From: an uncultured Gammaproteobacteria bacterium | GTDB taxonomy: Bacteria > Patescibacteriota > Patescibacteriia > Magasanikbacterales > GWA2-37-8 | DNA: 64,000 nucleotides | Assembly: GCA_964540825.1 (NCBI GenBank) | Contig: CAZINT010000001.1 | Location: 219,396 to 283,395 of the forward strand | Reading direction: 5' to 3' | In this document: positions 1,966 through 61,150 of the stretch, in pieces | Numbering within the stretch: position 1 is the stretch's first letter | Layout: the number at the start of each line of letters is the position of its first letter | Made by a program: the position numbers and the translations under genes | The notes under the pieces: model-generated | What the model was told of the DNA's origin: nothing | The model's database searches: none | The model's input: the letters and a program-made list of their open reading frames with translations, nothing else

Positions 1966-4137
1966 GTGAATGTGAATATGGAAAAAAGTACTAGCGCTTC
2001 GCACGAAAACGATCCGCGTTTTAAATTGCCAGTTGAGCCTGAAACAGATATTTCTCTCAAGTCTGAGCAGGCTAAAAGCAACCTTCGGTTAGTAACTGAT
2101 TTTGAGGAAGGGCCGGCTAAAAAACGGTCGAATAAATTTTTTTTGAAACGGTCGGATAACACCCTTTTTCTTGGTAAAAAAGAAATTGATCTTTCAATTG
2201 ATGGGCGCGAACCGTCCTATCCTGCTCGAGGTAAAAATGTTTTTGTTTTTGGTTTTGGCAATAGTGTCTATAAAATATTTAAAGAAAAAGGAAAGCTGTA
2301 TGGCCAGGCAATACTTTTCGGCAAGGAACGCCCTCGAGTGCAGCTTGAATCGGACTGGAGTATTGTTAATGAGATCAATGTTTTTAAAGGAAATGTAAAA
2401 TTTAATTCTCGCTTGGAAACTGCCGAAGATGCTCCGGCGACCGGTGATGTTCAGCTTGATGAGGTGCCTGACAAACCGAACGCTGAAACGGCTGGTGCCG
2501 AGGAGCAGGCGGGATTGGTAGTGCCGCTCAGGGAATCGACTGAGCCTGCATATCTGCGTGATGATACGCGCGGATCTTCAGTAGAAAAAATTGAAATGAG
2601 GGTGCATAAAGATTTTGACGATCTTATCTCTAGTCCTCCCCGCGGGGTTGAAACTGTAGCACCTGCCGATGAATCCGTTACTCCAGAACAAAAAGTATTC
2701 ATCAGCGAAACTATTGCCGACGCTCGGGCTACATCAGTTGAATTACTGCAGTCATTAGCAGACGAGGGTAAAGATGAAGACTACTATGCATCGCTGAGTA
2801 TCGAGTATTCAACCGAGGATAAAGAAGCAGTTGCTCGGGGTGTAGCCGCCCGAACGTATGGGACCAGTTCAACGGGTGGTGACGGGTCAAGATATGCGGT
2901 TCCAGAAACGCTGCCGGTTCAGCATGAAAACAGAACCGCTCTCGTAGGAGTAGTCACGGAAGCAGGGCGTCTTGGAGCTGCGGTTATTGAAGCTACAACA
3001 CCACGCGCGCTCGAAGGTGCTCGGGGCATAGTAGCTCACGGCCTCGCTCAAGAACGATTTTCACTTACAACGGTTTTTGATGCTGCCCGCCGACTGCTAT
3101 CAAAAAAAGCTAAAACTGCCGAAAAGCTTTCGGCAGCAGCAATTACCGTAAGTCCTCAGGGTGAAGTTATTATGGCTTCTATGGGTGACACGGCTGTTCT
3201 TATGGTCCGCGAAGGAAAAAAAGTAGAGCTTGTTGATCAAAAAGAACCTGTTCCGACTAAAGACTTTCCGGCAAAGGGTGAAGCAGACGCTAAAGGTATG
3301 TCGGAGCTGCTTGAAACAAAAATGGCTCATGGTAAAGATCATGATCAGGTTATTGCCGCCACGAAACGTTTTTGGGATTTAGTGAGTGAGTATGAGGTAG
3401 AAAAATATGCCAAGCGCTATCGCGGCGAAGCTTTGCAAAAAGTTTTGTTTAATTTAGCGTACGACCGAAATAACGCGGTGGTGCCATTCGTAATTGAGAC
3501 AAGTCCGAACGAAAAGAAGTATGAGCAGCCTGCTAAGGGTGAGGGGGAGTCAATCGCTCTTCAGGTAACCCATGTGGAATTGCCAGAGCAGCGCGGTTTT
3601 CTTTCTAAACTCGGGCGCAGTAAAGCAGGTACGTGGTTACGCAGCGCCGCGCTCGTTGCCTTTGGTTTTTCAGCCCAGGGCAAATTGGACACTCGGTCGT
3701 ACACTCCGGACGAGATTGCTGCCATCCAAAAAGCGCCGGAAAAAATGCAGCCAAGTACAAAGCAGGCGGTTGAAAAAATTACGGTTGAAAATCGGCGTGG
3801 AAATGAGCATGAGTTGGTTCGGTTGGTAGATGCTGTAACTACAAAAATAAAATTACTTGGCAGTTCACCAGAAGATAACGGCCGCAAAGTTTTGATCGCA
3901 GCCTGGATGAAAAAACTATTACGCGGTGAAGACGCTGGCGGATTTAAAGCGGCTGATTTTAATAGAAATATACAGCACACTCGGGATGGGAAATTTAGCT
4001 TAAGTGCACCAGGGCTTGAACTGTTTATTGCGGATGCTGCGGGTGCAGCCAAAGAAAAAAAACATATTTCTACCGCTATAAAGTATGCGGAGACGACGTA
4101 TAAACTTGACTTTGGCAGTACTAAAAGTACACCTTAA
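1966..4137 (+). CDS. large hypothetical protein with degenerate PP2C-like region
   Basis: 723 aa. Segment AAAITVSPQGEVIMASMGDTAVLMVREGKKVELV resembles PP2C phosphatase motifs (GS/TA...vANvGDSRAvL.r.G), but the metal-ligand DGHGG is replaced by TEAGRLG. The true start may be the ATG at 1978. Confidence 0.5.
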   Translation: MNVNMEKSTSASHENDPRFKLPVEPETDISLKSEQAKSNLRLVTDFEEGPAKKRSNKFFLKRSDNTLFLGKKEIDLSIDGREPSYPARGKNVFVFGFGNSVYKIFKEKGKLYGQAILFGKERPRVQLESDWSIVNEINVFKGNVKFNSRLETAEDAPATGDVQLDEVPDKPNAETAGAEEQAGLVVPLRESTEPAYLRDDTRGSSVEKIEMRVHKDFDDLISSPPRGVETVAPADESVTPEQKVFISETIADARATSVELLQSLADEGKDEDYYASLSIEYSTEDKEAVARGVAARTYGTSSTGGDGSRYAVPETLPVQHENRTALVGVVTEAGRLGAAVIEATTPRALEGARGIVAHGLAQERFSLTTVFDAARRLLSKKAKTAEKLSAAAITVSPQGEVIMASMGDTAVLMVREGKKVELVDQKEPVPTKDFPAKGEADAKGMSELLETKMAHGKDHDQVIAATKRFWDLVSEYEVEKYAKRYRGEALQKVLFNLAYDRNNAVVPFVIETSPNEKKYEQPAKGEGESIALQVTHVELPEQRGFLSKLGRSKAGTWLRSAALVAFGFSAQGKLDTRSYTPDEIAAIQKAPEKMQPSTKQAVEKITVENRRGNEHELVRLVDAVTTKIKLLGSSPEDNGRKVLIAAWMKKLLRGEDAGGFKAADFNRNIQHTRDGKFSLSAPGLELFIADAAGAAKEKKHISTAIKYAETTYKLDFGSTKSTP

Positions 4138-4148
4138 ATTTTATTTAT

Positions 4149-7100
4149 ATGGGTAAAGGAGGTCGGGAGGCAGGGGCTGGCAAAGAGGTTGCGCCTGATA
4201 AAGCTAAAATCGATGAGCTGCTAAAACGCTGGGAAGCTGTTCTTCGGGCTAACCCGGGAATCGAAGCGGAAGCAGTCACCCGCATGAATTTGGAGTTTAC
4301 ACTGATTGGCAAAATAAAAAATGATAAGAAACGGACAAAGAAAATAGCCGAACTTGAAGCCGAAATTGCTCAATTTGAAGGCGTGCCATCGTCCAAGGTA
4401 CCAGCGGTCGATAATCAAGATACTTTGACAGTAAACACGTCTCTGCAAACACCGCATGCACAAAGTCAGCAATTGCCCGAGGATGTTGATGCGGACTTGG
4501 TATCGGGAACGGCCATTGATGATTACGAAGAATTCTCAGAAGATGCGGACGAGCCTCCACCCGAGGAAAAAAAGGATTGGGGGCAACCAGACCTCCGGAC
4601 TATTACGTTAGAGGACGCTGAGAAAGAAATTGACTGGGCAAAAAAATATCCAGAACTTGAGACGGCGATTAAGGGTGATTTGAATCAAGAAAATGAGCGT
4701 GTCTTTTATGGGGCGTATTTTCGCGCGTACCATGAAAAAGGCGTCACTGTTTTCGAGGATGGGTTAGATGGTATCGCTTCTGCTGAGGCGGTGTGGGCAG
4801 AAAATGAATATGAGTCTCAAGTGTCTGAGAAAAAATACACTGACCTCAAAAAATATGCACTCGACAATAATATTAATCTCGCTGTTGATTTTCCGGATGT
4901 TTTTGCAAGGTTAGAGGCGGCACGGGATGCGCTTGCGGATGCTATCGAACTGTCAACTGGTGAATTTCGTGCTGCAAACGATGTCTTTTTGGAAATTTTG
5001 AATGAATTGAATGCTAGTGTTGATTTGTTTATCACAGAAAAAATACGTATAGCTGAGGCCGAAGCTGAAGAGCAAGAAAAACGTAAAAATTTTTATGACA
5101 CTGTACAACAGGCACGTGCAGAGTTTCGGTCGAATTTTGAACGGTATGATATTGATCCGCAAGAATTTTTTCCCGTTGAGGATGAGCGTGCCGTTAATGC
5201 AATCCAGCATTTCGAACACGTAAAAGATGACGAAATTTCTATTGTTGAGGCCGCCTATACTGCGTGCCTTCTGGCTTTTAGTGAATTGCATAGTGCGCTC
5301 CAAGAATATATTCAATCACCCAATGCTGCGTCGGCAGATCTGGAAAAACCAATCACATTTGCCGAGGCTGAACAGGCGATTCAGTGGGCCAAAGATGAAT
5401 TCGCTCGAACCAAAGGAAAATTTGGTTTGCCGCCGCAACGAGAACCAAAAAGTGCTAAAGATACATTTGAGTGGGGTGCTTATTGGCGAACACAGCGGGA
5501 AGGCAAAGGTCAGATGAGTCAAAAAGAGTTGGATGAGGCCGCAGAACGCAACGGTGAATGCGCCCGGCGTGTATTTGTCGAACGACAATTTAATGTTTGG
5601 TTTGAAGCGCTGTGTAAAAAAGCCGAGCGCGCGGGTGTTTTAAATACTCTTTTTGATCGCTACGTAAAAAACGATCCGGCTGCAGGAAAAGTAGCGTGCA
5701 AGGAAAAAATGCTTGGCCCGCTTGAAACGATTGAACGAATCGCGGCTTACGATGAAGCGCACAAAAATGATGCAAACGCTAAGCCTTTTGACCTCCTCAG
5801 TCCGGCTGCTCAAAAAGAGTATCGAAACAGAGTCCTGCGTGCTGAGGGAGAGCTAACGAAACTTGATCGTGAAATTGGTAGCCTCATTAAAGAAAAAATG
5901 TGGGCTGACCCGAATAACCCCGACCGCGCCCAGCTTATCGCAGCGCTTGCTCCTGAGATCGCTCAGCATGATGCAGAAAATGCTTTGCCGCTTTCCCAAA
6001 TGGCAACAGCGGCTGATACCTATGGATTTTCACCAGAGGCACGCTTAGCTATTCAAAACGTCCTCACTGCCTGGGAAGGCGAGCATGCAGCTATTATAAA
6101 AAAATTAGCCAAACTCGAAGAGATGCAAAGCGACCCACGCATCCCCCCGGCCAAGGTCAAAAGTATGTGCGAGGCAATTGTTCGGCAATCAGCAGCTTTG
6201 AGTGAAAAAATTCAAAAGGGGATGGAGGAATATGTTGTGCCAGAACTTACCAAACAAACACAGGCTGAAATTGCCGCACTACTGGCGCTTGAAACTGTTC
6301 AGGCTGGGATTGGTTCTCAAAAAATAATCCAGGAAGAGCAGCGGGTGTCTGCTGAGCTTAGCAAGGCTCGGATCGCCCTTGAAACCGCACTCGCTGATTT
6401 CTTAACTGTGCCCGATGCGCGCGGTCAGTTTTTGGCGGCGCACCAAAAATATCATGAAGCTGCTACACGCGTCCGTTATTTTCAAGAGTCTGTACAGCCG
6501 ATCCGTGATGCTGCCAAAATCTCCGAACAGTATCGTGCCGTGAGTGATACGTATAGTTCTGCGCAACAATACTTGCACTATTTTTCAAACGAACTTAAGA
6601 TGCAGTTACCCAATCTATCTGCTGAATGTAATGATCTTGAGCGTAGATTGGAGGTGCTTGCCAAAAAGCCGGAGGCCTTAGCACTGGGCGAAATTGCCCC
6701 AGCAAAAGATTCGGTGGAGTTGTTTAAGCAGAAGGTTGTGGCGTTTAAAAAAATGCTTGAACAGGCTACGGCAGAAATTCCGGCTGCGGAAAAATTACGC
6801 CAAGAGAAAAAAGATACTGCTTTTAAAGATGAAATGAGAGAGGAATTTATACGCTTTCAAGATTTGCGTCGCAGGTATGAATCTTTAAAACAGGATATAG
6901 ATCCGAAAAATAATGCCGACCTGCTGAGGTTGTTCAGGTCGGAAATAGCTTTGCGTGATGAGTTTAGTGCCAAACTCAAAGCGGCCGGAAATACTAACGG
7001 GCTTGAACAATATAAGATTGCGTATAAAAATGAAGCAGACCGCATGGATGCAGCCTTGAACTATTTTAGCCATAGCCGTCTTTGGAAAATTGTTCAATCT

Positions 7101-7334
7101 CATCATGATGTTCCGCAAAGTGCTCGTGAACGCATCGAATACAATTTGGATTTACTGCACTCATTTTATATCAGCGGCAGTACCAGTAGAAATGATTTAT
7201 CCGAAAAAGCCCGGCTTATTTTTGATGAAATAAATGAGCTCGAGATAAAGCTCCCCCCTAAGAAGTCGCCGACACTTCGGGAAGTCGTTCGGGGAATCGG
7301 AAAAAAATTATTCGATAAAATAAAGCGTCCATAA
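4149..7334 (+). CDS. very large coiled-coil hypothetical protein (1061 aa, E/A/K-rich)
   Basis: Uninterrupted 3.2-kb ORF in backbone composition. Third member of a co-directional, tightly spaced trio. Followed by an intrinsic terminator. Confidence 0.5.
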   Translation: MGKGGREAGAGKEVAPDKAKIDELLKRWEAVLRANPGIEAEAVTRMNLEFTLIGKIKNDKKRTKKIAELEAEIAQFEGVPSSKVPAVDNQDTLTVNTSLQTPHAQSQQLPEDVDADLVSGTAIDDYEEFSEDADEPPPEEKKDWGQPDLRTITLEDAEKEIDWAKKYPELETAIKGDLNQENERVFYGAYFRAYHEKGVTVFEDGLDGIASAEAVWAENEYESQVSEKKYTDLKKYALDNNINLAVDFPDVFARLEAARDALADAIELSTGEFRAANDVFLEILNELNASVDLFITEKIRIAEAEAEEQEKRKNFYDTVQQARAEFRSNFERYDIDPQEFFPVEDERAVNAIQHFEHVKDDEISIVEAAYTACLLAFSELHSALQEYIQSPNAASADLEKPITFAEAEQAIQWAKDEFARTKGKFGLPPQREPKSAKDTFEWGAYWRTQREGKGQMSQKELDEAAERNGECARRVFVERQFNVWFEALCKKAERAGVLNTLFDRYVKNDPAAGKVACKEKMLGPLETIERIAAYDEAHKNDANAKPFDLLSPAAQKEYRNRVLRAEGELTKLDREIGSLIKEKMWADPNNPDRAQLIAALAPEIAQHDAENALPLSQMATAADTYGFSPEARLAIQNVLTAWEGEHAAIIKKLAKLEEMQSDPRIPPAKVKSMCEAIVRQSAALSEKIQKGMEEYVVPELTKQTQAEIAALLALETVQAGIGSQKIIQEEQRVSAELSKARIALETALADFLTVPDARGQFLAAHQKYHEAATRVRYFQESVQPIRDAAKISEQYRAVSDTYSSAQQYLHYFSNELKMQLPNLSAECNDLERRLEVLAKKPEALALGEIAPAKDSVELFKQKVVAFKKMLEQATAEIPAAEKLRQEKKDTAFKDEMREEFIRFQDLRRRYESLKQDIDPKNNADLLRLFRSEIALRDEFSAKLKAAGNTNGLEQYKIAYKNEADRMDAALNYFSHSRLWKIVQSHHDVPQSARERIEYNLDLLHSFYISGSTSRNDLSEKARLIFDEINELEIKLPPKKSPTLREVVRGIGKKLFDKIKRP

Positions 7335-7340
7335 TAAAAA

Positions 7341-7368
7341 AATCCCCAGCAAATTGGGGATTTTTTTA
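7341..7368 (+). terminator. rho-independent terminator
   Basis: Hairpin atcccca-gcaaat-tggggat followed by tttttttat. Confidence 0.7.
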
Positions 7369-7379
7369 TCCCTCAAGGA

Positions 7380-7408
7380 TTGACAAAAAATATTTTTTAT
7401 GCTTAGAT
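7380..7408 (+). promoter_or_regulatory. sigma70-like promoter for high-GC cassette A
   Basis: TTGACA (7380-7385), 17-nt spacer, TTAGAT (7403-7408). AGGAGG at 7441-7446 with GTG 6 nt downstream. Confidence 0.5.
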
Positions 7409-7452
7409 AAGGGCATCAACAATTCATGCGGCTTTGCCGCAGGAGGTCCAAA

Positions 7453-8205
7453 GTGGCGACGCACAATGCTCTCGGTGACCCCGATGGTCCAACCCCTCCC
7501 TATGAGGACACAGCGGAGCTTAAAATTCCGCCTTCGCTTCGTGTTCGAATCAAGCAGGGGTTGGGGTGGACCTACGAGGTCGTGCTCGTTCCGGTCTGGA
7601 ACCGTGGGTTGAAGCCGCTGACGTCACCCATCATCGTTCGGGTGCCCAGTGCCGTCTCGTTCATGCGGCAGCAGCGGTGGAACATCGCACTCTTCGCTGC
7701 TCTGCTCCTGGCTATCGTGCTTGCATACGTAGGTTACAAGTACGAGACTGCCCGCATGCGGGCTGCCTTCGTTCCGGCCGATCAGGGCGAGCACAGCACG
7801 GCGACACCTGTTGACCGTGATAGCGACGGTGTGGCGGACGAGACGGATCAGTGTCCCGATGTAGCGTCCGGCCCCACGCCGGATGCGAAGCGGCCCGGTT
7901 GCCCAGCGCCCGAGCAACCTGCTGCTCCGGTCCCGGTCTACCCTGACCTGTCGATCCCTGCGCCTGCCGCGTTGCCCGAAGAACCGCAAGCCGCTCCGCC
8001 CGCTGATGTGGATGGTGATCACGATGGGGAAGCGGCCGTCCCGTCCCGTCGACGTCACGTGCCGCATCGTAGGTTCAAGGCTGCGGTCGAGACGCCGCGG
8101 GCCTTCTGCCTGCGTATGCAGCGGGACCAGCGCTGGAGCCCCTGCTGCCAAGACGGCATCCCGGTCGCATGTTCGCCCGCTTCCTCAGCGCCCCATCGGC
8201 GCTAA
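7453..8205 (+). CDS. high-GC membrane/exported protein with thrombospondin-type-3-like Ca-binding motif (cassette A)
   Basis: GTG start 6 nt after AGGAGG, in frame with the track ORF at 7426. Internal TM helix WNIALFAALLLAIVLAYVGY. Motif DRDSDGVADETDQCPDV...KRPGCP matches the DxDxDGxxDxxDxCP...GCP TSP3/OmpA-linker repeat. Pro-rich. Near-saturated GC3. The C-terminal ~60 aa is Arg-rich and may be frameshifted. Confidence 0.4.
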   Translation: MATHNALGDPDGPTPPYEDTAELKIPPSLRVRIKQGLGWTYEVVLVPVWNRGLKPLTSPIIVRVPSAVSFMRQQRWNIALFAALLLAIVLAYVGYKYETARMRAAFVPADQGEHSTATPVDRDSDGVADETDQCPDVASGPTPDAKRPGCPAPEQPAAPVPVYPDLSIPAPAALPEEPQAAPPADVDGDHDGEAAVPSRRRHVPHRRFKAAVETPRAFCLRMQRDQRWSPCCQDGIPVACSPASSAPHRR

Positions 8206-8286
8206 CCCACGATAGCGTGGAAGAGTCGCGTGTGTTGGAGCTTTTCCGACCGCGCGACTTGCTTTGTTTTTAGCCCCACGAGGCCC

Positions 8287-8315
8287 TTGACAAAACCTTA
8301 AAAATGTGCTATACT
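8287..8315 (+). promoter_or_regulatory. consensus sigma70 promoter for cassette B
   Basis: TTGACA, 17 nt, TGTGC TATACT (extended -10). Followed by an AT-rich leader of about 345 nt before the ATG at 8668. Confidence 0.6.
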
Positions 8316-8667
8316 GATTTGTTACGTAAATAGAAAACCACACAACTAGCCAAGAAGCTCGAGAGAGGCTTCAAAGGTTAGCCAAAAGACCTTGTTTTAG
8401 CCAATTCTCTCACCCCAGGGAGTTTTTTTAGCTAAGAATGAACTAAGGTAAGCGGATTTAGATCCTTTTACCTTAGATCCATTCTAGGGTCTAACGCTCT
8501 TTACAATATAACCCTAGTTAAAAACCTACCCACCAATAATCGGTGAAGTATGGCGCAGAGAATGAGTTACCCAATATTGAGTCATTCATTCTCTGTTCCA
8601 GCTTCATTGTGAAGTTGGGGGAGCTGGAACGCTCAGAAACGTCAACCTTTTCGCTGGAGAAAAGATC

Positions 8668-9834
8668 ATGAACAGCAAGCTCGCCTTTGTCATCGCCATC
8701 CTCGCCGGCCTCTCGTCCACCTCCACCGCCCACGCCTTGAGCAGCGCCCACGACTTCGGTCTGGTCGTCCTGGGTCCCACGGACGAGCCCATCCCGTCGT
8801 GGGACGGGAACCCGGGGTCGATGACCCCGGCGAACGTCTGCAAGGCCGAGGGCAAGATCATGGCCCTTCAGGAGCCGACCGACAAGATCCGTGGTGGCGC
8901 CGTCGCTCAGGATGACCTGACGGCCCGGCGCGGCACGGTGTCGTCGCCCCAGAAGTCGATCGGGATCGTCGCGAACCGCAGCCAGATCGCCGGCAAGCAC
9001 GCCGGCGCCGCCTACTGCGTCGCGAAGTCCCGTGTCCTCTTCGCCGAGGACGTCGAGCAGCTGAACAAGCTCCTCAAGATCCTCCACAGCTTCAACGGCC
9101 CCGACGGCATGACGCGCCTCCGCGCCCTGCTCGGCGACCTGCCGCAGGGCAAGGAGACGATCCGCGAGTGGGTCACCGCCGCCATCACGGCGGGCGATCA
9201 GGGCACTAGCCTCGACTCGGCCAACCCCTTCAGCCCCCTCGCGATCAAGATCGCCCAGCTCATCGCCGAGATCAATCAGATCAAGGTCGAGCTCGAGGCG
9301 CTCAAGGCCCGCGTCGGCCAGCTCGAGACCGCGGTCGCAGAGCACTCGGCTCAGATCGCCAAGCTCCAGCAGACGGGCCCTGTGACCGGTCGGACCTTCG
9401 ATCTTCAGCTCCAGGGCATCGCGAGTGGCAGCCGGTTCATGATCGGTCTCGGCGGTGGTGCGAACCTCGTGTTCCACCTTCCTGTGCCGCGCCTCAGCGT
9501 CAAGTTCGGTGGCGACCTCATGGCCGCCTTCGAGACGGTCGGGTCCAATCGTATGGGCCTCGGCTGGGACGCGCGTGCGTTCGTCCAGTATCAGCTGCGT
9601 GAGTGGCTGACCATTGGCGGCGGGCTCTACATCGTCGGTGATGCTGGTACGATCAACGGTACCCGGTCGTTCGACGTTGGCCCTGCGCTGGACGCCGAGT
9701 TCTGGGTTCACCCGTTCGTCGCCGTCAACGCCTTCGCCTTCATCGGTGGTGGCAAGCACAGCGCCAGCTGGGCCATGTCGCAGCTGGGCGGTGGTGGCGG
9801 TCTCGGGGTCGTCCTGCGTCCCTTCCGCAAGTAG
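8668..9834 (+). CDS. high-GC secreted protein: signal peptide, central coiled coil, Gly-rich beta-rich C-terminal domain (cassette B)
   Basis: SD GGAGAAAAG 5-6 nt upstream. Signal peptide MNSKLAFVIAILAGLSSTSTAHA. Heptad-like IAQLIAEINQIKVELEALKARVGQLETAV. C-terminal alternating hydrophobic beta pattern. GC3 about 90% by eye. Confidence 0.5.
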   Translation: MNSKLAFVIAILAGLSSTSTAHALSSAHDFGLVVLGPTDEPIPSWDGNPGSMTPANVCKAEGKIMALQEPTDKIRGGAVAQDDLTARRGTVSSPQKSIGIVANRSQIAGKHAGAAYCVAKSRVLFAEDVEQLNKLLKILHSFNGPDGMTRLRALLGDLPQGKETIREWVTAAITAGDQGTSLDSANPFSPLAIKIAQLIAEINQIKVELEALKARVGQLETAVAEHSAQIAKLQQTGPVTGRTFDLQLQGIASGSRFMIGLGGGANLVFHLPVPRLSVKFGGDLMAAFETVGSNRMGLGWDARAFVQYQLREWLTIGGGLYIVGDAGTINGTRSFDVGPALDAEFWVHPFVAVNAFAFIGGGKHSASWAMSQLGGGGGLGVVLRPFRK

Positions 9835-9852
9835 CGGATAAACTAGGGTTCG

Positions 9853-9890
9853 GAGGGGAGCGGTGGACAGTAATGTCTGCCGCCCCCTCC
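9853..9890 (+). terminator. GC hairpin after cassette B (putative terminator)
   Basis: ggagggg...cccctcc inverted repeat immediately after the stop. No clear U-run. Confidence 0.35.
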
Positions 9891-9958
9891 AAAACCACAT
9901 TCTGTTTCTGAACAAATGTTCGGCAACAGAAAATGGTTCAGTTAGCCAAAAAAACCTA

Positions 9959-9987
9959 TTGACAAAACCTCAAAAATATGGTATAGT
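9959..9987 (+). promoter_or_regulatory. consensus sigma70 promoter for cassette C
   Basis: TTGACA, 17 nt, TATAGT. About 230-nt AT-rich leader with a long imperfect hairpin (ggtttcgcggtt...aaccgcgaaccc) at 10112-10170. Confidence 0.6.
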
Positions 9988-10224
9988 ATGTCGTTATTAA
10001 ATACAGCAGGTGCTTAGGAGTAGCCCATTAAAAATGGTCTTCTCCTAGACACTTGGCTCTGCCAAAAGTCTACGTTCTTTACAATCACATTGCTACTACT
10101 CAAAATGTTCTCCTGAAGGTTTCGCGGTTATCAGTACTTACTAATTATTTGGTAAGGTACTGGAAACCGCGAACCCGCTGCGTGTCTTAGGACACGCAGC
10201 ACCCACGACCACCAGGAGATGAAC

Positions 10225-10938
10225 ATGAACACGAACCACGTCCGCGCCCTGCTCACCGCCGCCCTGCTCACGCTCGCCCCGACCTTCGTCGTGGGCTGTG
10301 CCCCCGAGCCGATGGACGGCACGCCGTCCACGGTCATCGGCGACCGCGACGGCGACGGCACCAAGGACAACGTCGACAAGTGCCCCGACCTCGCCGGGCC
10401 CGGCAGCAACAACGGCTGCCCGGTCACCAACATGAGCGGGGGCGAGCCCGTGCCCGCCACCCTCACCGACGCGATCTGCTACGATCGGGACCACCACTAC
10501 CCCCACGCCTGCGCGGGGGAGTGCGTGACCAAGGTCCAGGACTCGCTGAACTGCGGCGCCTGCGGCCGCCGGTGCAAGCCGACGGTCGAGGCCTGCGAGA
10601 ACAGCGTCTGCATCCCGGCCGGCTCCGCCAAGTGGGGCGCCTGGGTCCAGAACGCCACCAACCGCACCCTGAACCTCACGGTCGGCCACACCGAGCTCGG
10701 CATCAGCGCCGTCGAGGAGCAGATCACGCTCGCCCCCGGCGCCTGGTGGGGCAACGGCAACTGGACCGGCGTCTACGCCTCCGAGAACCCCTGGAAGGAG
10801 AACGTGATGCAGGAGTCCCTCGCGGACTGCCAGCTCAAGTTCAACGGCAAGGGCCGCCGCGAGGTCGTCTTCAAGACGAACAACCGCACCGGCGTCGGCC
10901 GCTGCGAGTTCAAGACCGACGCGGAGGGTAACCTCTAG
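10225..10938 (+). CDS. high-GC Cys-rich lipoprotein with TSP3-like Ca-binding motif (cassette C)
   Basis: AGGAG 6 nt upstream of the second ATG (10225). Lipobox-like FVVGC. IGDRDGDGTKDNVDKCPDLAGPGSNNGCP is a TSP3-type repeat. Multiple Cys pairs. Five N-x-T sequons. Confidence 0.5.
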   Translation: MNTNHVRALLTAALLTLAPTFVVGCAPEPMDGTPSTVIGDRDGDGTKDNVDKCPDLAGPGSNNGCPVTNMSGGEPVPATLTDAICYDRDHHYPHACAGECVTKVQDSLNCGACGRRCKPTVEACENSVCIPAGSAKWGAWVQNATNRTLNLTVGHTELGISAVEEQITLAPGAWWGNGNWTGVYASENPWKENVMQESLADCQLKFNGKGRREVVFKTNNRTGVGRCEFKTDAEGNL

Positions 10939-11143
10939 CCGGTCCGGTGCGACGAGTAGTAACAAGTGATTACCTACCCTGGTGGGCCCCGCACGACGAC
11001 TCGAAAGAGACGTCTACGCGGGGCCTGCCTTCTACTTCATACTCATAATCTCACCAGATTGTGGAGATACAGTAGAAATAAAATCCTACCAAAACATCCA
11101 CCCTTTCTCTCAAGGCTGGATGTTTTGTTTTTACTCCGACTGT

Positions 11144-11592
11144 AAGCAGGTTAGGCAGAGTAAGTACTAAGCAGAATAAGTTTTTATGTTAGATAATTTC
11201 TTTGGCTTTGTATCCAGCGGGTTAACAGCTTACCAACTTCTTCACACTGACTTCTTGCCTGATTATATTCTGATTCTTTTAGATAGTGTAAGTCGTGGGC
11301 GAGAATGAAGTGATATTTAGTTTCTTCGAGCGAAGCGTCAGCAATATTGTAAAATTTAATACTGTCTCGTAATTCTTTTCTTCTAAATCCTTCAACGATG
11401 TTAGTAGGTACTGAAGCAGCAGATCTTCGTATTTGGCTCGTTAAACCAAAGAGTTCGCTTTTTGGAAATTGGTTGGTAACTTTATAAACAAAAAGCACGA
11501 GCGTATGTGCCTTTTGCCAAACCTGTAATTCTGTAAAAACTTTTATTGTCGTCATGCTTATTCTGCTTAGGACTTACTCTGCCTAATCTGCT
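11144..11592. repeat. 37-bp inverted repeats (2 mismatches) bracketing the four-helix-bundle protein gene
   Basis: Left arm 11144-11180 aagcaggttaggcagagtaagtactaagcagaataag. Right arm 11556-11592 is its reverse complement apart from two mismatches. The arms abut the gene stop and start codons. Confidence 0.7.
11184..11555 (-). CDS. four-helix-bundle protein (23S rRNA intervening-sequence protein family, TIGR02436-like)
   Basis: 123 aa. LTSQIRRSAASVPTNIVEG and overall helical pattern typical of the family. Confidence 0.75.
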   Translation of the reverse strand: MTTIKVFTELQVWQKAHTLVLFVYKVTNQFPKSELFGLTSQIRRSAASVPTNIVEGFRRKELRDSIKFYNIADASLEETKYHFILAHDLHYLKESEYNQARSQCEEVGKLLTRWIQSQRNYLT

Positions 11593-11596
11593 TCGT

Positions 11597-13087
11597 CTAC
11601 GCCTCTCTCGGTTTTTTCGCCGCCCAGTATCCCCAGACCGCCCACATCCACCAGATAACCGGTGTATGATGCAGCATATTGTCTGATAAACTCATTACCA
11701 GGTATACAAGGATGCACAGTAAAAAAGAAAAATGAATCCAGCGGCCACGCAGCAGATCGCGGAATTCGTGGTACATGAGCGTAAAGAAAATACTTAGGTA
11801 TAAAAATAAGCCAATCACGCCGCTTTCAAAGGCGACCTTAAGGTAATCATTGTGGGCTTCGGAAGTGTTATCAAATAAATTTTCGACGCCTTTGTTGTAA
11901 TCCCAGACCTTGCTAAACGAACCGTAGCCATACCCCAGATACGGGCGGGCCTGGAAAAGGGGAATAATTTTGTTGGCAATATCAGCACGCCATTGAATGG
12001 AGTCGGCGTCTTCGTTGCGGCTGGTCAGGCGCGAGATAATACTGTTGCTTTGAAGATTGATATTATACGTATGACCGAGCCAGTTATTGAGCGGGTAAAA
12101 GAGCGTAAAAAAGGCAACACTGCCAACCACAACCCACAAAAAGATTTTTTCGTAATAAAAAAAACAAATAGCCAGAATGAAAGCGGCAAGCCCAATCCAA
12201 GCGACGCGCGTATACGTAAAAGCAATAATCAGGAGTAAAAAAGCAAAAGCAAACGGCGTAAAATCGTGCACATGGTGAATGGTGCGGGCGTTAAAGCGGC
12301 GGAAAAATTGTTTGACTGGCGAAATGAATTGATCGATGAGGTTCTTTTTTTCAAAACGCAGTTGAAAACGGTAGGTATAGTCGGCGAGGACTATAAACAG
12401 GAGTACTGTATAGGTAGCTAAAAGATTAGGGTGGGCAAAGGTGCCAAAAATACGGTTAGATACACCGTCGATGGTCATGCCTGTTCGGGTGACAAGTTGG
12501 TAGGCGGCAAGGAGGAGGGGAAAGCACGAAGCGATAATAAGGCTAAGGTAAAACGGCCAAACAAAGGCTTCGCCTTCTTTGCGGCGCAAAATATTACAGA
12601 CACCAAAAAGCGCAAACAAGTTAGCGGCCTTAAGTGTTTCCGTTATAGTTGATGATTGATCGAAACTGTAAAAAAAAGTGATGGCGCACCAAGCGATAAA
12701 AATAAGCCACGGGTATTTTGCTGGAATTTCTTTCCAATATTCCCGATTTTTAATAAAGAAATAAGCTGCCCAGCCAGCCAACAGCATGGAGATGGCGGCG
12801 TTGATATTGAAGGTAACACTGCCGAGTGAAAAGAAGGAATAGTCACGCAAGCCGTCAATGGTAGGGCGAAAAGCTAAGAAAAGTAAGATCGCTCGTTCGC
12901 CAAAGAGTTTGTGAAGGACGATAAGGGCAATAAGGAGAAACGCCATAATATCCCCCGCGCTCGTGGGGTTAATAATAGTGAAACCAATAAGTCCGATGAT
13001 CAGCCAGGCCCACAAGGCAAAGGTATCGCGCATAGGTAAAATCAAGGTTTTAAGTGTGTTATTCCTGCACGGGAATAACTCGTTCAC
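11597..13087 (-). CDS. O-antigen ligase/Wzy-like polytopic membrane protein (putative)
   Basis: 496 aa, about 12 TM segments with a large loop. Confidence 0.45.
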   Translation of the reverse strand: MNELFPCRNNTLKTLILPMRDTFALWAWLIIGLIGFTIINPTSAGDIMAFLLIALIVLHKLFGERAILLFLAFRPTIDGLRDYSFFSLGSVTFNINAAISMLLAGWAAYFFIKNREYWKEIPAKYPWLIFIAWCAITFFYSFDQSSTITETLKAANLFALFGVCNILRRKEGEAFVWPFYLSLIIASCFPLLLAAYQLVTRTGMTIDGVSNRIFGTFAHPNLLATYTVLLFIVLADYTYRFQLRFEKKNLIDQFISPVKQFFRRFNARTIHHVHDFTPFAFAFLLLIIAFTYTRVAWIGLAAFILAICFFYYEKIFLWVVVGSVAFFTLFYPLNNWLGHTYNINLQSNSIISRLTSRNEDADSIQWRADIANKIIPLFQARPYLGYGYGSFSKVWDYNKGVENLFDNTSEAHNDYLKVAFESGVIGLFLYLSIFFTLMYHEFRDLLRGRWIHFSFLLCILVYLVMSLSDNMLHHTPVIWWMWAVWGYWAAKKPREA

Positions 13088-13091
13088 TTCG

Positions 13092-13120
13092 TTGACAAAG
13101 ACAGGTTTTTATGGTATACT
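13092..13120 (+). promoter_or_regulatory. consensus sigma70 promoter
   Basis: TTGACA, 17 nt, TATACT, 35 nt before the ATG at 13156. Confidence 0.6.
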
Positions 13121-13155
13121 CAGACGTTAACGAATGACTTAAGTATAGCATAAAA

Positions 13156-15231
13156 ATGTGGTATACTACAGTAAAACCTATGAAGCGACTTACTAAACGT
13201 ACCGCCAAAAAAGCCATAGCCCCCAAAAATCATGCACTTGCGTGGTATCGGGGTGTGGTCGGCGTCGCCATCGGCCTTGTGGCCCTGGTTTTTTGTTTTC
13301 GGGCAACAACTATTTCCGCGCCGCTCTTGGCTAATTATTACTTAGGCACACTTCCGCAGGATGATGCGACGATTAGCTTACTGGCGCGTAATGATGTTTT
13401 GGTCTTGAGCAGCGAACAAGGGGTGATTCGTAAAGATGTTATTCAAAAAATCAAACAGAAAAATCCTAAGATTATTTTGCTGGCGTACGTTATCAGTAAA
13501 AGCTACGACTCAAACTGGAAGAATTATCCGGCTAATACCGTCTATAATGATTTCCAGGTTGACGACAGCTGCTGGCTCCGCGACAGTAAGGGTAATATTT
13601 TATCTGACTGGCCAGGACAAAAAAGCTTGAATATGAAAGAGCAGTGTACTGATTATTTGATCCAGTACACTAAGAACCATATTTTGTCGCAGGGTCTTTG
13701 GGATGGTGTTTTTTGGGATGTGGTGAATGGGAATATTGCTTGGACCAACCGGGGTGATATCGATCTCAATGGCGACGGGCAGATTGACAATCCGGCTGCT
13801 GCTGATGCTGAATGGTTGCGTCGGACAAACTACCTGCTCAGTCAGAGCCGTAAAGAGCTGCCGGTAAAATATTTTGTTATTAATGGAACTTCAATTCCGG
13901 CTGTGCAGCCGTATGTGAACGGCCGCATGTTTGAAAACTATCCAACTCCTTGGGAAGCAAATGGTTCGTGGGGAGGCCTCATGACCACGCTCGCCGCCAA
14001 CCAAAAAACAAACGTTGCGCCGCAGTTGTATATTTTTAATGCTAATACCAATAATACCGGTAACCAGTCAGACTACCGTAATATGCGTTTTGGTCTGACG
14101 AGCAGTCTTCTGACCAACAATACTTATTTTGCTTTTGACTATGGAACCAACGACCACAGTCAGACTTGGCAGTATGATGAATACAATGTAAAGCTCGGTG
14201 ATCCGGTTGCTCCGGCGGTATCGCGAAATAACGAAACGCAATTTAAAGAAACGGACGTGTGGAAACGTGAATACACCAACGGCATCGCGCTTGTAAATCC
14301 GACCGGGCAGTCGCAAACGGTAGACCTCGGGGCAGAATACGAAAAAATTATTGGTACGCAAGACAAACGCGTAAACGATGGCGCGATCACAGATCGTGTA
14401 ACGCTCGGCGCGAAAGACGGCATCGTGATGATGAAAACTTTGGAAGGTATCAGCAGTATTAAAAAAACGACTTTTAAAAATGGTTCGTTCTTACGCTTTT
14501 TTGACCTCAAGGGTAATCGTGCGCGTAACGGTTTCTTTGCGTTTGACAGCGCCTACCAAGGCAGTGCGACTATTTATCAGGGCGACCTGGACGGCGACGG
14601 CACGGAAGAAAAAGTAGTGGCAACGGGCGCTAAACTCGAAATTTTTAACAGCAGCGGCGAGCGCTGGTTTAATGATTATCCGTACGGTGGTAATTTTAAA
14701 GGAACGATTCAAATTGCAGTTGGTAAATTCTTCGGGTCCGCGACTAATCAGATTGTAGTTGCTCCTTCTAAAGGCGGAAAGGTATTAATTTATGATTATC
14801 ACGGCACGCTAATTAAGGATGATTTTTATCCGCTTGGTAAAAAATATCAAAACGGTTTTACCGTGGCAGTCGGCAGTCCGACCCCTAAGGATGCCGGCGA
14901 ACTTGTCGTTGGTGTTGGAAAGGGGAGTCCGACCGAAGTGTTGGTTTATGCAAGCGGTTTTGATAAAATCACCAAACGCTTTTTCCCCTATGACAAAAAG
15001 TTTACGGGTGGCGTTGCAATGGCGGTGGGTGATATCAACAATGACGGCGTAAATGAGATTGTAACCTTGCCGACAAAGGGTACCCCAACCGCTCGCGTGT
15101 ATACGACTGCAGGTAAAAAAGTATCTGAATTTAAAATACCATCGCTGTTCGGTTCTGTGCCGGTAGACATTACCATTGCGGATATTAACTTTGACGGCCG
15201 ATCCGAAATCGCTGTCATGAATGGACAATAG
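13156..15231 (+). CDS. secreted protein: N-terminal TM anchor, putative glycan-hydrolase-like domain, C-terminal FG-GAP/VCBS-type repeats
   Basis: 691 aa. Repeats DLDGDGTEEKVV / DINNDGVNEIV / DINFDGRSEIAV. N-terminal family assignment is uncertain. Confidence 0.45.
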   Translation: MWYTTVKPMKRLTKRTAKKAIAPKNHALAWYRGVVGVAIGLVALVFCFRATTISAPLLANYYLGTLPQDDATISLLARNDVLVLSSEQGVIRKDVIQKIKQKNPKIILLAYVISKSYDSNWKNYPANTVYNDFQVDDSCWLRDSKGNILSDWPGQKSLNMKEQCTDYLIQYTKNHILSQGLWDGVFWDVVNGNIAWTNRGDIDLNGDGQIDNPAAADAEWLRRTNYLLSQSRKELPVKYFVINGTSIPAVQPYVNGRMFENYPTPWEANGSWGGLMTTLAANQKTNVAPQLYIFNANTNNTGNQSDYRNMRFGLTSSLLTNNTYFAFDYGTNDHSQTWQYDEYNVKLGDPVAPAVSRNNETQFKETDVWKREYTNGIALVNPTGQSQTVDLGAEYEKIIGTQDKRVNDGAITDRVTLGAKDGIVMMKTLEGISSIKKTTFKNGSFLRFFDLKGNRARNGFFAFDSAYQGSATIYQGDLDGDGTEEKVVATGAKLEIFNSSGERWFNDYPYGGNFKGTIQIAVGKFFGSATNQIVVAPSKGGKVLIYDYHGTLIKDDFYPLGKKYQNGFTVAVGSPTPKDAGELVVGVGKGSPTEVLVYASGFDKITKRFFPYDKKFTGGVAMAVGDINNDGVNEIVTLPTKGTPTARVYTTAGKKVSEFKIPSLFGSVPVDITIADINFDGRSEIAVMNGQ

Positions 15232-15243
15232 GAAGTGTAGGTG

Positions 15244-15310
15244 TAAGCAGAGTAAGTACTAAGCAAAGTAAGTTTTGTGCTTACCTTGCTTACTCTGCCT
15301 AATCTGCTTA
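15244..15310. repeat. solo copy of the palindromic element seen at 11144-11592, between convergent genes
   Basis: taagcagagtaagtactaagcaaagtaag - ttttgtg - cttaccttgcttactctgcctaatctgctta. The arms are shortened versions of the 11144 and 11556 arms with no cargo gene. Confidence 0.6.
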
Positions 15311-37651: not shown

Positions 37652-37960
37652 ATGAAATCACCAGAAGGAATTATTGAAGAGTTAATGTCCATGTCGGACA
37701 GCGCCAGAAACAAAGAAAATCAAAAAAAGGTTGAGGATATGATGTCTGCAATTATGGCTGATCCTAAGTTTTCTGGACGAGAAATATTTCAGACTGATGA
37801 TGGTAGGGTGGTCACTCGAGAAGGTGAAGAGTTTAGAGAAGTAACTCTTTCCGACGAAGGTAAGGTTGTGGTAGGCGATGTGGCCGTACCATTTGAACCT
37901 AGGAAGTTTGAACCACGCCCGCCACGAAAAGTTAGACAGCCGCACCCTGATGCAAAATAG
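37652..37960 (+). CDS. hypothetical protein
   Basis: 102 aa acidic ORF. Confidence 0.3.
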   Translation: MKSPEGIIEELMSMSDSARNKENQKKVEDMMSAIMADPKFSGREIFQTDDGRVVTREGEEFREVTLSDEGKVVVGDVAVPFEPRKFEPRPPRKVRQPHPDAK

Positions 37961-37982
37961 TTCATTGGAAGCCTTAAAGACC

Positions 37983-38011
37983 TTGACAAAAGGTCTTTTT
38001 TGTGCTACACT
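37983..38011 (+). promoter_or_regulatory. consensus sigma70 promoter for cassette E
   Basis: TTGACA, 17 nt, TGTGC TACACT. About 200-nt AT-rich leader containing CGTTCTTTACAA. Confidence 0.55.
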
Positions 38012-38219
38012 ATTTGCGTCCTAGAATATAGGATAATCGTTCTTTACAAAGGAAATGATGAAGCAGGGCTCCCTGTTTGTGAGCGTTCCTGGTTACGAAG
38101 AAAGCTAATCTTAGCGGTTATTTTTCTCTGTAACGGGAGCTCCCCGGAGCTTAAAGTCTGGAATTCAGACTTTCCCTACTTCTCTTTCCTCAAAACTACA
38201 CACAGGAGTGTACGGTACA

Positions 38220-38804
38220 ATGTTCACCAAAAGTCTCCTCGCCGTGGTTCTGTTCACGCTTCTCGGTCTCTTGTCCTCGGCTCGTGCTGAATGTCACGCA
38301 GCGTCGGCAGGGCCCCACCACAGCATGGAAGTTGCTGTTAGCCTCGGATCTACGATTTGGGTCACTCACCCCGTAGAAGCCACCTTTGGTGCCGTACTCG
38401 GCATGCCGGTCAGCCACGATGGCTGCTGGTGGGTGCGCGGTGCCATCGAGCTCTACAAGCCGATCGGCAACCAGCCGCCTGGTTTCGCCGGCATTCTTTC
38501 GCTCACGCGGCGTATCAACCCCCGTTTGGAGCTTGGTGTTGCCGCCAGTGCCTTGTTGCCGTTTACGGAAGAGGCATACCACCACCCCGAAGAGGGGGCT
38601 GGGCTGCCGCCTCGTGAAGGTGTCATCCTTGTAGCTGGTCCGCAACTTCGCCTTCAGCCGACCGCGGCCTTTCCGACCATCGTCGTTACCCCCATGGGTG
38701 GTTACGAAATGAACGTCGGCAACGTGCTTGGTCTTTCGGTGGAGTTCGAGGCTGACCTCACTGGGGCCGTCTTCGACCTCGTGCACCGCCTGCGTCGCCA
38801 CTGA
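38220..38804 (+). CDS. high-GC secreted beta-rich protein (cassette E)
   Basis: Signal peptide MFTKSLLAVVLFTLLGLLSSARA. Alternating hydrophobic pattern suggests a beta fold. GC-rich. Confidence 0.45.
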   Translation: MFTKSLLAVVLFTLLGLLSSARAECHAASAGPHHSMEVAVSLGSTIWVTHPVEATFGAVLGMPVSHDGCWWVRGAIELYKPIGNQPPGFAGILSLTRRINPRLELGVAASALLPFTEEAYHHPEEGAGLPPREGVILVAGPQLRLQPTAAFPTIVVTPMGGYEMNVGNVLGLSVEFEADLTGAVFDLVHRLRRH

Positions 38805-45002: not shown

Positions 45003-45074
45003 GGCCCGTTCGTCTATCAGTTAGGACAGTGCCCTCTCACGGCGCAAAGACGGGTGCGATTCCCGTACGGGCTA
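45003..45074 (+). tRNA. atypical tRNA-like gene, anticodon CUC (Glu-like)
   Basis: Hand-folded cloverleaf. Acceptor ggcccgt/acgggct with G1.U72; D-stem gtct/ggac; anticodon stem gtgcc/ggcgc; loop cuCUCac; T-arm acggg-tgcgatt-cccgt. Deviations are G at position 55 and U at position 19. CCA is not encoded. Confidence 0.45.
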
Positions 45075-45089
45075 CAGAGAATTGAAAAA

Positions 45090-45109
45090 CAGAGCAAGCT
45101 CTGTTTTTT
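45090..45109 (+). terminator. intrinsic terminator after the tRNA-like gene
   Basis: cagagc-aa-gctctg then tttttt. Confidence 0.7.
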
Positions 45110-45250
45110 GTTATTATAGTGTTTTGAGTTGGTAGTGTTTGGTTTGGAGTGGTCATTTATTAACTGGCGTAATTATTGAAAATAAAATTCAATAGTGATA
45201 CTATGAGGGCAGTGAATTTGCTTAAATTAAGGAGTTTTAGGTAAAATATT

Positions 45251-47221: not shown

Positions 47222-47229
47222 AAATTTTT

Positions 47230-49842: not shown

Positions 49843-49851
49843 TTTTAATTT

Positions 49852-50760
49852 GTGTCCCTCTTCAAAATCACCAATCAAAAAACCAAGAAAATTCTTCCTG
49901 CTAAAGTTCTTAAAGAACAATACATACATTCTTTATTTGAAGCTAACCTTGAGGAATTACTCGGTATATACTTTTTGGCACACGAATATAGCACCTCGGC
50001 AGGCGGTAGAATCGATACGCTTGGAGTAGATAAAAACGGTTCACCGTGCGTGATTGAATATAAAAAAGGCCAAAACGACAATGTTATTAATCAAGGATTG
50101 TCGTATTTACGCTGGCTTTTGGATCACAAAGCCGATTTTGAAAGGCTGTGCCAAAACAAAAATTTTAAAGTGAGTATTGATTGGACTTCGCCTCGAGTTA
50201 TTTGTATCGCTGAAAACTATAATAAGTTTGATATCGATACCGTAGAAATATTGCCCATAAAAATTGAATTGTTAAAATACGGCTTGTATGATGGCGGGTT
50301 GTTGCAGTTGGAACACGAGAAACACGACAATATAAAAGTAAGTACAGGTGAAATATATAAAAATTCCAAGAAAGACAATAAGGTAGTGGGCGAAAAGCTT
50401 CAAAAAGAATATAGCGTTGATCATCATTTGCAAGGCAAAAAAGAAGAAATCAAAAAAATCTTTTTTGATATTAGGGAATGGGTCACTAACCTTGATAAGG
50501 ATATTGTTGAGGAACCGAAAAAGTTATATGTCGCCTATAAGTTAGCCACCAATTTTGTTGATGTCGAAATTCGGAGTAAAGATATAAAACTATTTTTGAA
50601 TATACCAAAGGGGAAATTAAATGATCCTCTGGGGTTGGCTCGAGATGTTTCGAGCGTTGGGCATTGGGGAAATGGCGATTATGAGGTAAAAATAACTACT
50701 AAGAGCGATTTAGAGCCTGTGTATGGCCTGGTGCGGCAGAGTTATGAATTTAATAAATAA
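49852..50760 (+). CDS. PD-(D/E)xK nuclease-like protein (DUF91/NucS-like N-terminus plus C-terminal domain of unknown function)
   Basis: GGRIDTLGVDKNGSPCVIEYKKGQ (D...ExK). 9 nt after res. Same AT-rich composition. Confidence 0.45.
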   Translation: MSLFKITNQKTKKILPAKVLKEQYIHSLFEANLEELLGIYFLAHEYSTSAGGRIDTLGVDKNGSPCVIEYKKGQNDNVINQGLSYLRWLLDHKADFERLCQNKNFKVSIDWTSPRVICIAENYNKFDIDTVEILPIKIELLKYGLYDGGLLQLEHEKHDNIKVSTGEIYKNSKKDNKVVGEKLQKEYSVDHHLQGKKEEIKKIFFDIREWVTNLDKDIVEEPKKLYVAYKLATNFVDVEIRSKDIKLFLNIPKGKLNDPLGLARDVSSVGHWGNGDYEVKITTKSDLEPVYGLVRQSYEFNK

Positions 50761-55338: not shown

Positions 55339-55366
55339 TCCCGTGTTCGCGGGATTATTTTTTTAT
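55337..55366 (+). terminator. intrinsic terminator
   Basis: aatcccg-tgtt-cgcgggatt then attttttta. Confidence 0.7.
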
Positions 55367-55680
55367 TTGCCATTGGTGTCGTTTTTCGAATTCCCCTGCT
55401 CGGTCATTCCCGCGCAGGCCTGTCAGGTAGGCAGGCGGGAATCGAGGGCTCCTGACACATAGCCTGCTTGTTACCTTTTTGACAGCAAAAAGGTAACCGA
55501 AAAACTGTCCGAGCTATTGTTCGCTTCCTCGTACTGCCACAGCTCGTTTTCACTGCGACACTAAAACTCGTTTCACTCAAACATTAGTGTCGCTGCAAAG
55601 CACCGTTCAAACTCGCTGGGCCAGTACGGGTCGCGCCCAAGTGCTCGGAGTAGTGAAGTGAGTAAGGTGTTTGGTTTTTA

Positions 55681-60723: not shown

Positions 60724-60808
60724 GGAGAGTTCGCATATCCCAAAGGGATCCCTTGGGAGTTGGTCTAGTGCGCACGTCCCGAAGGGACCCCTTCGGGGCT
60801 TGGAAATA
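60724..60808 (+). pseudogene. degenerate duplicate of tRNA-Ser 5' half interrupted by two GC palindromes
   Basis: ggagagttcgcat + [atcccaaagggatcccttggg] + agttggtctagtgcgcacg + [tcccgaagggaccccttcgggg] + cttggaaa. Without the bracketed inserts this equals the first 45 nt of the tRNA at 61065. Confidence 0.6.
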
Positions 60809-60815
60809 GAAAAGT

Positions 60816-61079: not shown

Positions 61080-61150
61080 TTGGTCTAGTGCGCACGCTTG
61101 GAAAGCGTGTATACCGAAAGGTATCGAGGGTTCGAATCCCTCACTCTCCG
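61065..61150 (+). tRNA. tRNA-Ser (anticodon GGA)
   Basis: Acceptor ggagagt/actctcc; anticodon stem cacgc/gcgtg; loop ttGGAaa; long variable arm tatacc-gaaa-ggtata; T-arm gaggg-ttcgaat-ccctc; discriminator G. Confidence 0.8.

Follow-up and report, generated by a model that had tools for sequence, protein, structure and literature searches.

The ops/JUMPStart-RfaH system and the targets of LoaP and UpxY are known cases in which one genome repeats an element across leaders that are otherwise unrelated. The ops/JUMPStart case combines a short oriented box, a variable distance and long leaders in front of acquired surface or secreted-protein genes. Regulon boxes of small RNAs (sRNAs) and RNA-binding proteins, such as the C/A-rich sites of GcvB or the GGA of CsrA, are likewise short single-stranded motifs that recur in functionally related mRNA leaders and can sit far upstream of the Shine-Dalgarno sequence (SD), while the cis-regulatory families of Rfam include orphan riboswitch-like and protein-binding leaders. 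Next to nothing is known about gene regulation in the CPR/Patescibacteria, a group of uncultured bacteria.

The 64-kb stretch of DNA analysed here (the window), from a tiny-genome, Magasanikbacteria-like member of the CPR, shares with these systems a short box that is repeated in the leaders of several genes, here high-GC genes for secreted proteins or lipoproteins. Since related genomes have kept both the box and one of the leader folds, the leaders that carry the box probably represent a new regulatory leader family. Its sequence features would fit a common recognition site for a single trans-acting factor, with the transcript or the transcribing complex as target, and not a self-contained RNA switch.

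High-GC cassettes and the leader box

The window has a densely packed backbone of about 45% GC, which carries typA, suf genes, gatCAB, murein genes and a Wzy-type ligase, and inside it lie seven segments of 60–70% GC, referred to as cassettes A, B, C, E, F, G and H. Cassette A spans 7426–8205. On the plus strand, the gene of cassette B (8668–9834; 67% GC, GC3 0.88) encodes a 388-aa protein with a signal peptide, that of C (10225–10938; 70% GC, GC3 0.98) a Cys-rich, lipoprotein-like protein, and that of E (38220–38804; 61% GC) a 194-aa protein with a signal peptide. Cassettes F (51526–52872, a cytochrome P450), G (56200–56670) and H (62167–63306) lie on the minus strand. GC3 ranges from 0.67 to 0.98 in the six cassettes scored in frame (B, C and E–H; A, read in the wrong frame, is not among them) versus 0.42–0.52 in native genes, and the coding strands are C-rich (GC skew −0.03 to −0.10). 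The cassettes are real coding frames with foreign composition. Apart from F, those with a readable N-terminus begin with a signal peptide or lipoprotein N-terminus, all signal peptides and lipoboxes having been called by eye, and no Pfam domain of note was found in any cassette protein other than F.

The high-GC secreted-protein and lipoprotein genes behind the leaders were apparently acquired horizontally. A search of 5.8 billion proteins returned zero homologues of protein B, a phage collection gave no match to positions 7300–11200, and a literature search on high-GC genes or leaders in Patescibacteria or Magasanikbacteria found nothing relevant. Proteins identical to those of the window occur on a 416-kb NCBI contig and in Logan assemblies of SRR11567520/28. 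Most of the high-GC cassettes have strong native-type promoters. At the E locus the genes stay GC-rich through speciation.

The window holds several other features of note. Within 45003–50760, a tRNA gene is followed by a 34–37% GC island with a type III restriction-modification system (mod 45251–47221, res 47230–49842) and a DUF5655 protein. At 60736–61150, a GIY-YIG nuclease ORF (60816–61079) lies between a partial tRNA 5′ copy and an intact tRNA (61065–61150), whose first bases it overlaps, an arrangement that suggests a mobile element inserted at a tRNA gene. About 300 nt of apparently G+C-rich non-coding DNA (55360–55660) separate an AAA+ (MgsA) gene from tsaE, with no Rfam match at the gathering threshold. 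The first codons of cassette G (56630–56670, minus strand) read ATGCGATAC-GCTCTTTACAC-CGTTCTTTTGTG, two box-like sequences formed by AT-rich codons in the signal peptide of an otherwise GC3-rich gene; the pair may be chance or the trace of a leader-gene fusion junction.

A 12-mer shared by the leaders of cassettes B, C and E had been reported in an earlier note on this DNA, and the observation was confirmed. In the window CGYTCTTTACAA occurs three times (8495, 10073 and 38038), all on the plus strand, with 0.05 occurrences expected from shuffles, and each copy lies in sense orientation in the 5′ leader of one of the three cassettes. The copies read CGCTCTTTACAA in leader B (8495–8506) and CGTTCTTTACAA in leaders C (10073–10084) and E (38038–38049). 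The position first given for E was one base off, and the heading of the earlier note went too far in adding cassette H, whose leader (63316–63447, minus strand) contains no box even when two mismatches are allowed. Corrected for post-hoc choice of the motif, a 9-mer common to three of the four leaders arose in 2 of 2000 dinucleotide shuffles of those leaders. The enrichment is limited to the exact box, versions with one or two mismatches being found 42 times against 43 expected.

Window and related genomes together refine the consensus to the 11-nt box GYTCTTTACAW, which reads GCTCTTTACAA in leader B (8496–8506) and GTTCTTTACAA in leaders C (10074–10084) and E (38039–38049). Ten copies occur in about 134 kb of DNA from the clade (the window and loci L001, L002, L081 with three copies, L105 and L107) versus about 0.26 expected; clade sampling is small, with about five quasi-independent leader lineages. 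All ten lie on the sense strand, 100–280 nt 5′ of a high-GC (GC3 0.67–0.98) signal-peptide or lipoprotein gene. No copy was found away from such genes in the same clade loci, and about 1.3 Mb of unrelated loci contained few matches, at chance level only. Across the copies, ten of the 11 positions do not vary; the eleventh is A or T.

Cassettes A, F/P450, G and H are high-GC yet lack the box, which is thus no general requirement for expression of high-GC genes. A metagenome scan for the pattern TCTTTACAA-N8-30-CAGGGNTCCCTG gave 21 matches, all of them chance and in unrelated, mostly coding DNA. Recurrences of 'TTAGCCAA' and 'TACTATAG' are not significant, and the 'ccaaaag' pair to which attention had been drawn dissolves on inspection: it is a 7-mer, and 8- to 10-mers common to two leaders are usual in shuffles.

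Leader architecture and conservation across related genomes

The leaders are long, as the earlier note had stated (about 346 nt in B, 229 nt in C and 202 nt in E), and all three fold far better than shuffles (z −3.6 to −8.9). Leader B (8322–8667, plus strand; 41% GC, z = −6.2) follows a sigma-70-type promoter at 8287–8315 (TTGACA-17-TATACT with a TG extension; 11 of 12 matches). Predictions leave most of its box unpaired (on average with probability 0.89), and the box stands between a hairpin at 8436–8484 and a long hairpin at 8545–8605 with a core inverted repeat at 8551–8600. Leader C (9996–10224, plus strand; z = −8.9) follows a sigma-70-type promoter at 9959–9987 (TTGACA-17-TATAGT with TG; 11 of 12 matches), a region 71% identical to the B promoter over 55 nt. 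Its box lies immediately 3′ of a hairpin at 10046–10072; downstream are a long near-perfect hairpin at 10118–10175, earlier placed at 10112–10170, and a second, G+C-rich hairpin at 10177–10200, 13 nt before the SD AGGAG. The distance from box to transcription start, with starts predicted from promoter sequences, is about 173 nt in B, 78 nt in C and 20 nt in E, and so varies as had been described. In most leaders, predicted folds leave UACAA, the 3′ half of the box, free of pairing, while predicted accessibility of the 5′ half is inconsistent among them; in five leaders the gap between box and helix is 0–3 nt.

Leader B also contains a terminator-like hairpin, CTCTCACCCCAGGGAG followed by T7 (8407–8429, plus strand), 5′ of the box, with a counterpart in the leader of L081 cassette 1 (14961–14938, minus strand). 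These leader-internal hairpins sit about 100 nt past the promoter and before the box, and each might act as an attenuator or mark where a short promoter-proximal RNA ends.

The E promoter (37983–38011, plus strand; by eye) consists of TTGACA at 37983–37988 and TGnTACACT at 38003–38011. A hairpin with a T-run overlaps it (37977–38011, plus strand; by eye), and in the window, L001, L105 and L107, where this is kept, the −35 hexamer lies in the loop with the T-run after it; the hairpin looks like a promoter-overlapping terminator of the upstream small ORF. Leader E has a folding z of −3.6, and the E-type leader RNA (38012–38217, plus strand; model R1, 226 bits) is a multi-helix RNA of roughly 190 nt. 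Hairpin H0 (38018–34) is followed by the unpaired box, which lies between H0 and the 5′ strand of P1, and then by the closing helix P1 (38050–67 with 38175–90), which encloses a small P2, a long P3 (38088–136) and the short P4 (38138–51) and P5 (38153–73). The 5′ strand of P1 is purine-rich and its 3′ strand pyrimidine-rich, ending 10–30 nt before the SD.

Five distinct E-type leaders, folded independently, reached this same architecture, and a covariance model built on it matched a single site in each genome, with no other match in 407 kb. Seventeen of the 57 pairs, in seven helices, changed on both sides, versus 5.3±1.8 in column shuffles (0 of 500 shuffles as high) and 2–9 with slid partners, and 88% of alignment cells are paired versus at most 52% when slid; these counts come from six distinct sequences, four of them close relatives, and from a model-fitted alignment that leans toward the model's structure. 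The E leader is in form a structured cis-regulatory leader, with a conserved multi-helix fold and compensatory changes 5′ of a gene. A coherent gene function or ligand was not found for it, the downstream proteins falling into at least two unrelated families without a Pfam domain. The Rfam scan that had been proposed matched no leader family: Rfam 15 at the gathering threshold returned two tRNAs only for the whole window, and permissive scans of 8200–10300 and 37950–38260 gave sub-threshold, chance-type matches only.

Two further E-leader candidates were rejected by eye. Pairing of the box with the P2 loop as a pseudoknot is not kept in L002. A leader peptide of 17 codons in the window, L001 and L107 extends to about 34 codons in L105 and is absent in L002; substitutions in the ORF show no synonymous bias, and leaders B and C have no counterpart.

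Covariation, to which the earlier note had pointed as a check, supported the E-type fold; none common to all leaders emerged. Orthologues and one paralogue pair apart, no similarity between leader sequences could be detected beyond the box, and MAFFT/RNAalifold gave no reliable common alignment of the array leaders. A single common RNA fold was rejected, as model R1 matches E-type leaders only; it misses B, C and the L081 array leaders, so that the box alone is common to B, C and E. The leaders of B, C and the L081 array follow a simple plan of box, long hairpin, short hairpin and SD.

At the E locus, two of the relatives compared are CAZECR010000035 (L001), whose TypA protein is 96% identical to that of the window, and 'Candidatus Magasanikiibacteriota bacterium nzgw350' (L002), at 82%; these TypA matches place the window in the Magasanikbacteria group of the CPR/Patescibacteria. 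Between the window and L001, the 203-nt core of the E leader, promoter included, is 94.6% identical at the nucleotide level, versus 85–87% for flanking housekeeping genes and 85% for typA, whereas the small upstream ORF and the downstream high-GC gene cannot be aligned as DNA and the downstream proteins are 23% identical. The order sufB, oxidoreductase, small ORF, promoter, leader, high-GC gene and typA is kept in L002, L105 and L107/L108, except that in L002 the small ORF is 3′ of the cassette. The high-GC genes (window 38220–38804, L001 2953–3483, L002 6344–6928, L105 7207–7779 and L107 1708–2268) encode proteins of 176–194 aa with a signal peptide. All of these relatives carry the box, one variant ending in T.

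The E-locus proteins form two groups unlinked by BLASTP, one of the window, L105 and L107 and one of L001 and L002. The window protein is 41–49% identical to those of L107 and L105, and identity within families at the locus is 41–51%, while TypA is 96% identical across the window, L105, L107 and L001. Two protein families behind one fixed leader would indicate gene replacement or extreme divergence. Two further related assemblies break nearby, L003 in typA and L004 about 70 nt upstream, where one would expect the high-GC cassette with its structured leader; assembly of this locus may be difficult.

The second conserved site lies beside Wzy in L081, which is from the same genome as L105 and whose Wzy is 83% identical to that of the window. 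At the site homologous to the A-B-C array, flanked in both genomes by Wzy and a 23S-rRNA-IVP/bAvd-like gene, L081 has three different high-GC cassettes (c1–c3). One recognisable promoter, 89% identical to promoter C, serves the three cassettes, and in each leader the order is GYTCTTTACAA, long hairpin, short G+C-rich hairpin, SD. The leaders of cassettes 1 and 2 (L081_1 and L081_2) are 79% identical from box to ATG, and their upstream flanks and downstream genes are unrelated, so the leader acts as a module with the box as its 5′ edge.

The IVP/bAvd-like gene itself (11184–11555, minus strand; 134 bits for 23S_rRNA_IVP versus 46 bits for bAvd) lies between 37-nt inverted repeats that are 95% complementary (window 11144–11593). 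The same repeat-arm sequence occurs without the gene at 15243–15309 of the window and at 6442–6513 and 11427–11457 of L081, and gene and repeats look like a small palindromic mobile element. A diversity-generating retroelement was rejected, with no TR/VR-like repeats in 4000–14000 and no RT among the scanned ORFs.

A candidate docking site and the competing explanations

The account that we favour, tentatively and with somewhat less than even confidence, is a modular cis-acting leader in which the box is the common docking site of a putative trans factor, protein or sRNA, acting at the RNA level. A trans-factor site is suggested because the box is strand-specific, transcribed, helix-flanked, near-invariant in otherwise diverged leaders and tolerant of distance. 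The leaders would act in cis on the transcript, after initiation, with the box presented largely single-stranded, a hairpin upstream of it and a stable helix downstream. One trans-acting factor, an RNA-binding protein or a small RNA, would dock there and co-regulate translation and/or stability of a small secreted-protein and lipoprotein regulon, and the leader-specific helices, such as the E-type domain with its pyrimidine-rich 3′ strand just before the SD, might form the local expression platform.

Three functions had been proposed for the shared element in the earlier note: a cis-regulatory RNA element, a protein operator and an internal −35 element. The first is the best supported, by the strand-specific box, the transcribed leaders, the occurrence in at least four related genomes, the common gene class and the covariation of the E fold, although not as one RNA structure for B, C and E. 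A protein operator on DNA is unlikely, the box being a single non-palindromic copy 20–173 nt past the start and L081 cassettes 2 and 3 carrying it with no promoter nearby. A direct anti-SD role was rejected, since duplex energies of box and ribosome-binding site rank in the middle of all 13-nt leader windows in 10 of 10 cases and the predicted partners of the box differ between leaders. The complement of the box was not found in the window, so no candidate sRNA was obtained there.

The data fit just as well with a box that is recognised on the non-template DNA strand while elongation proceeds. The main rival, though rather unlikely in our estimate, is an ops-like elongation signal, a pause or loading site for a NusG-family paralogue (RfaH-, LoaP- or UpxY-like) that would be read on non-template DNA or nascent RNA and make RNA polymerase termination-resistant over foreign, C-rich, slowly translated genes. 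The model is attractive because the targets are indeed foreign and their coding strands C-rich, and the short oriented box, its variable distance and the long leaders follow ops/JUMPStart logic. In L081 three cassettes with one recognisable promoter each have their own box, and, by eye, a hairpin with a T-run after it separates cassette 1 from cassette 2, where the scan listed none. The Bacillus subtilis NusG pause motif is a TTNTTT-type T-tract in the non-template strand, and eight of the 10 boxes contain TTCTTT, a match of sequence only, the other two having CTCTTT. However, no NusG or KOW paralogue was found among 40 window ORFs (Pfam) or the Pfam tags of L081 and L105, and each of B, C and E is a short monocistronic unit with a strong promoter of its own. 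In B and L081_1 the box comes after the leader-internal terminator and therefore cannot suppress it, and the distance from hairpin to box varies, unlike in a strict hairpin-dependent pause.

A more speculative and unlikely extension would treat the leaders as a 'domestication platform', in which foreign high-GC surface or secreted-protein genes, possibly from a high-GC host or neighbour, are placed behind exchangeable native leaders. The box would recruit a putative specialised elongation or translation factor, by an ops/RfaH-like logic with unrelated sequence, and may also mark the swap junction; without the factor the genes would be silent.

It is quite improbable that the box is instead an RNA processing site, at which a sequence-specific endoribonuclease would cut off the promoter-proximal part or the upstream cassette and leave a stable hairpin-capped mRNA. 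The box does lie between hairpins with very stable helices after it, the paralogous L081_1 and L081_2 leader modules start exactly at it, and the L081 array is apparently polycistronic. However, the housekeeping RNases Y, J and III are not known to need an invariant 11-mer, and cutting would remove little from E-type leaders, whose transcription start is about 20 nt away from the box.

That the box is a recombination site where leader-plus-gene modules join or swap is very improbable, even though sister genomes hold different genes at the same site beside Wzy and the IVP gene (A-B-C in the window, c1-c2-c3 in L081), two unrelated protein families stand behind one E leader, and the similarity of the L081_1 and L081_2 leaders begins at the box. 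No recombinase was found among the scanned neighbours, and no second or partial box at the cassette 3′ ends. At the E locus similarity breaks after the leader (38192), not at the box, and the element is not attC-like, being 5′ of the gene and without inverted core sites.

An internal promoter with the TTTACA of the box as −35 element is very doubtful indeed. The box resembles the lineage's −35 context (CTTGACAA versus CTTTACAA; match at 8283), and L081 cassettes 2 and 3 have no other promoter, but a weak −10 at the right spacing occurs in C only (TTTACA-17-CAAAAT, 9 of 12). No −10 was found at 16–18 nt in B or L081_1 to L081_3 by scans, or in E and its orthologues by eye, and E-type leaders have a conserved GCAGGGCTCCCTG 17 nt downstream. 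Least probable of all is a non-functional relic of duplicated leaders with shared ancestry: duplication is clear (71% over 55 nt between the B and C promoter regions, 79% between L081_1 and L081_2), but 10 of 11 box positions stayed invariant while the remaining leader sequence diverged past detection, and the box is unchanged in E orthologues whose leaders are just 60% identical overall.

The yield is a testable regulon, defined by an 11-nt box and a covariation-supported leader RNA, whose genes are fast-evolving secreted proteins of foreign composition at recombination-prone sites. The secreted cassette proteins are plausible players in episymbiont cell-surface interactions. Should the box turn out to be what lets foreign genes be expressed, it would solve in a new way the problem of xenogeneic control that RfaH/ops solves in enterobacteria, and it would serve as a tag by which to search CPR metagenomes for genes of this kind.

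Comparison with known systems

Like integron cassettes, the high-GC genes are tandem, partly promoterless, of foreign composition and separated by hairpins, with different cassettes at the same site. Unlike at attC, a hairpin and box lie 5′ of each gene and R''/R' inverted core sites are lacking, no integrase was found among the scanned neighbours, and most cassettes have their own promoter. As to sRNA and RNA-binding-protein regulon boxes, typical protein sites are shorter than GYTCTTTACAW and vary more.

Like orphan riboswitch-like and protein-binding leaders, the E leader is a multi-helix 5′ UTR domain of about 190 nt directly before the SD, with conserved junction sequences and compensatory changes. 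Unlike the Rfam leaders it has no Rfam match, and its box is common to leaders of different fold. It precedes fast-evolving, even non-homologous secreted-protein genes and not a metabolic family, which argues against a metabolite sensor.

Relative to ops/RfaH, the box has no resemblance to the ops consensus GGCGGTAGNNTG, and it is set in a covarying RNA structure. The host is a member of the CPR with a genome of 45% GC, in which the foreign genes stand out by high GC, unlike the AT-rich targets of ops; several of them are single short genes. The closest system in logic is ops/JUMPStart and the closest in form the orphan structured 5′ leaders, and the GYTCTTTACAW leaders fall outside the definition of both.
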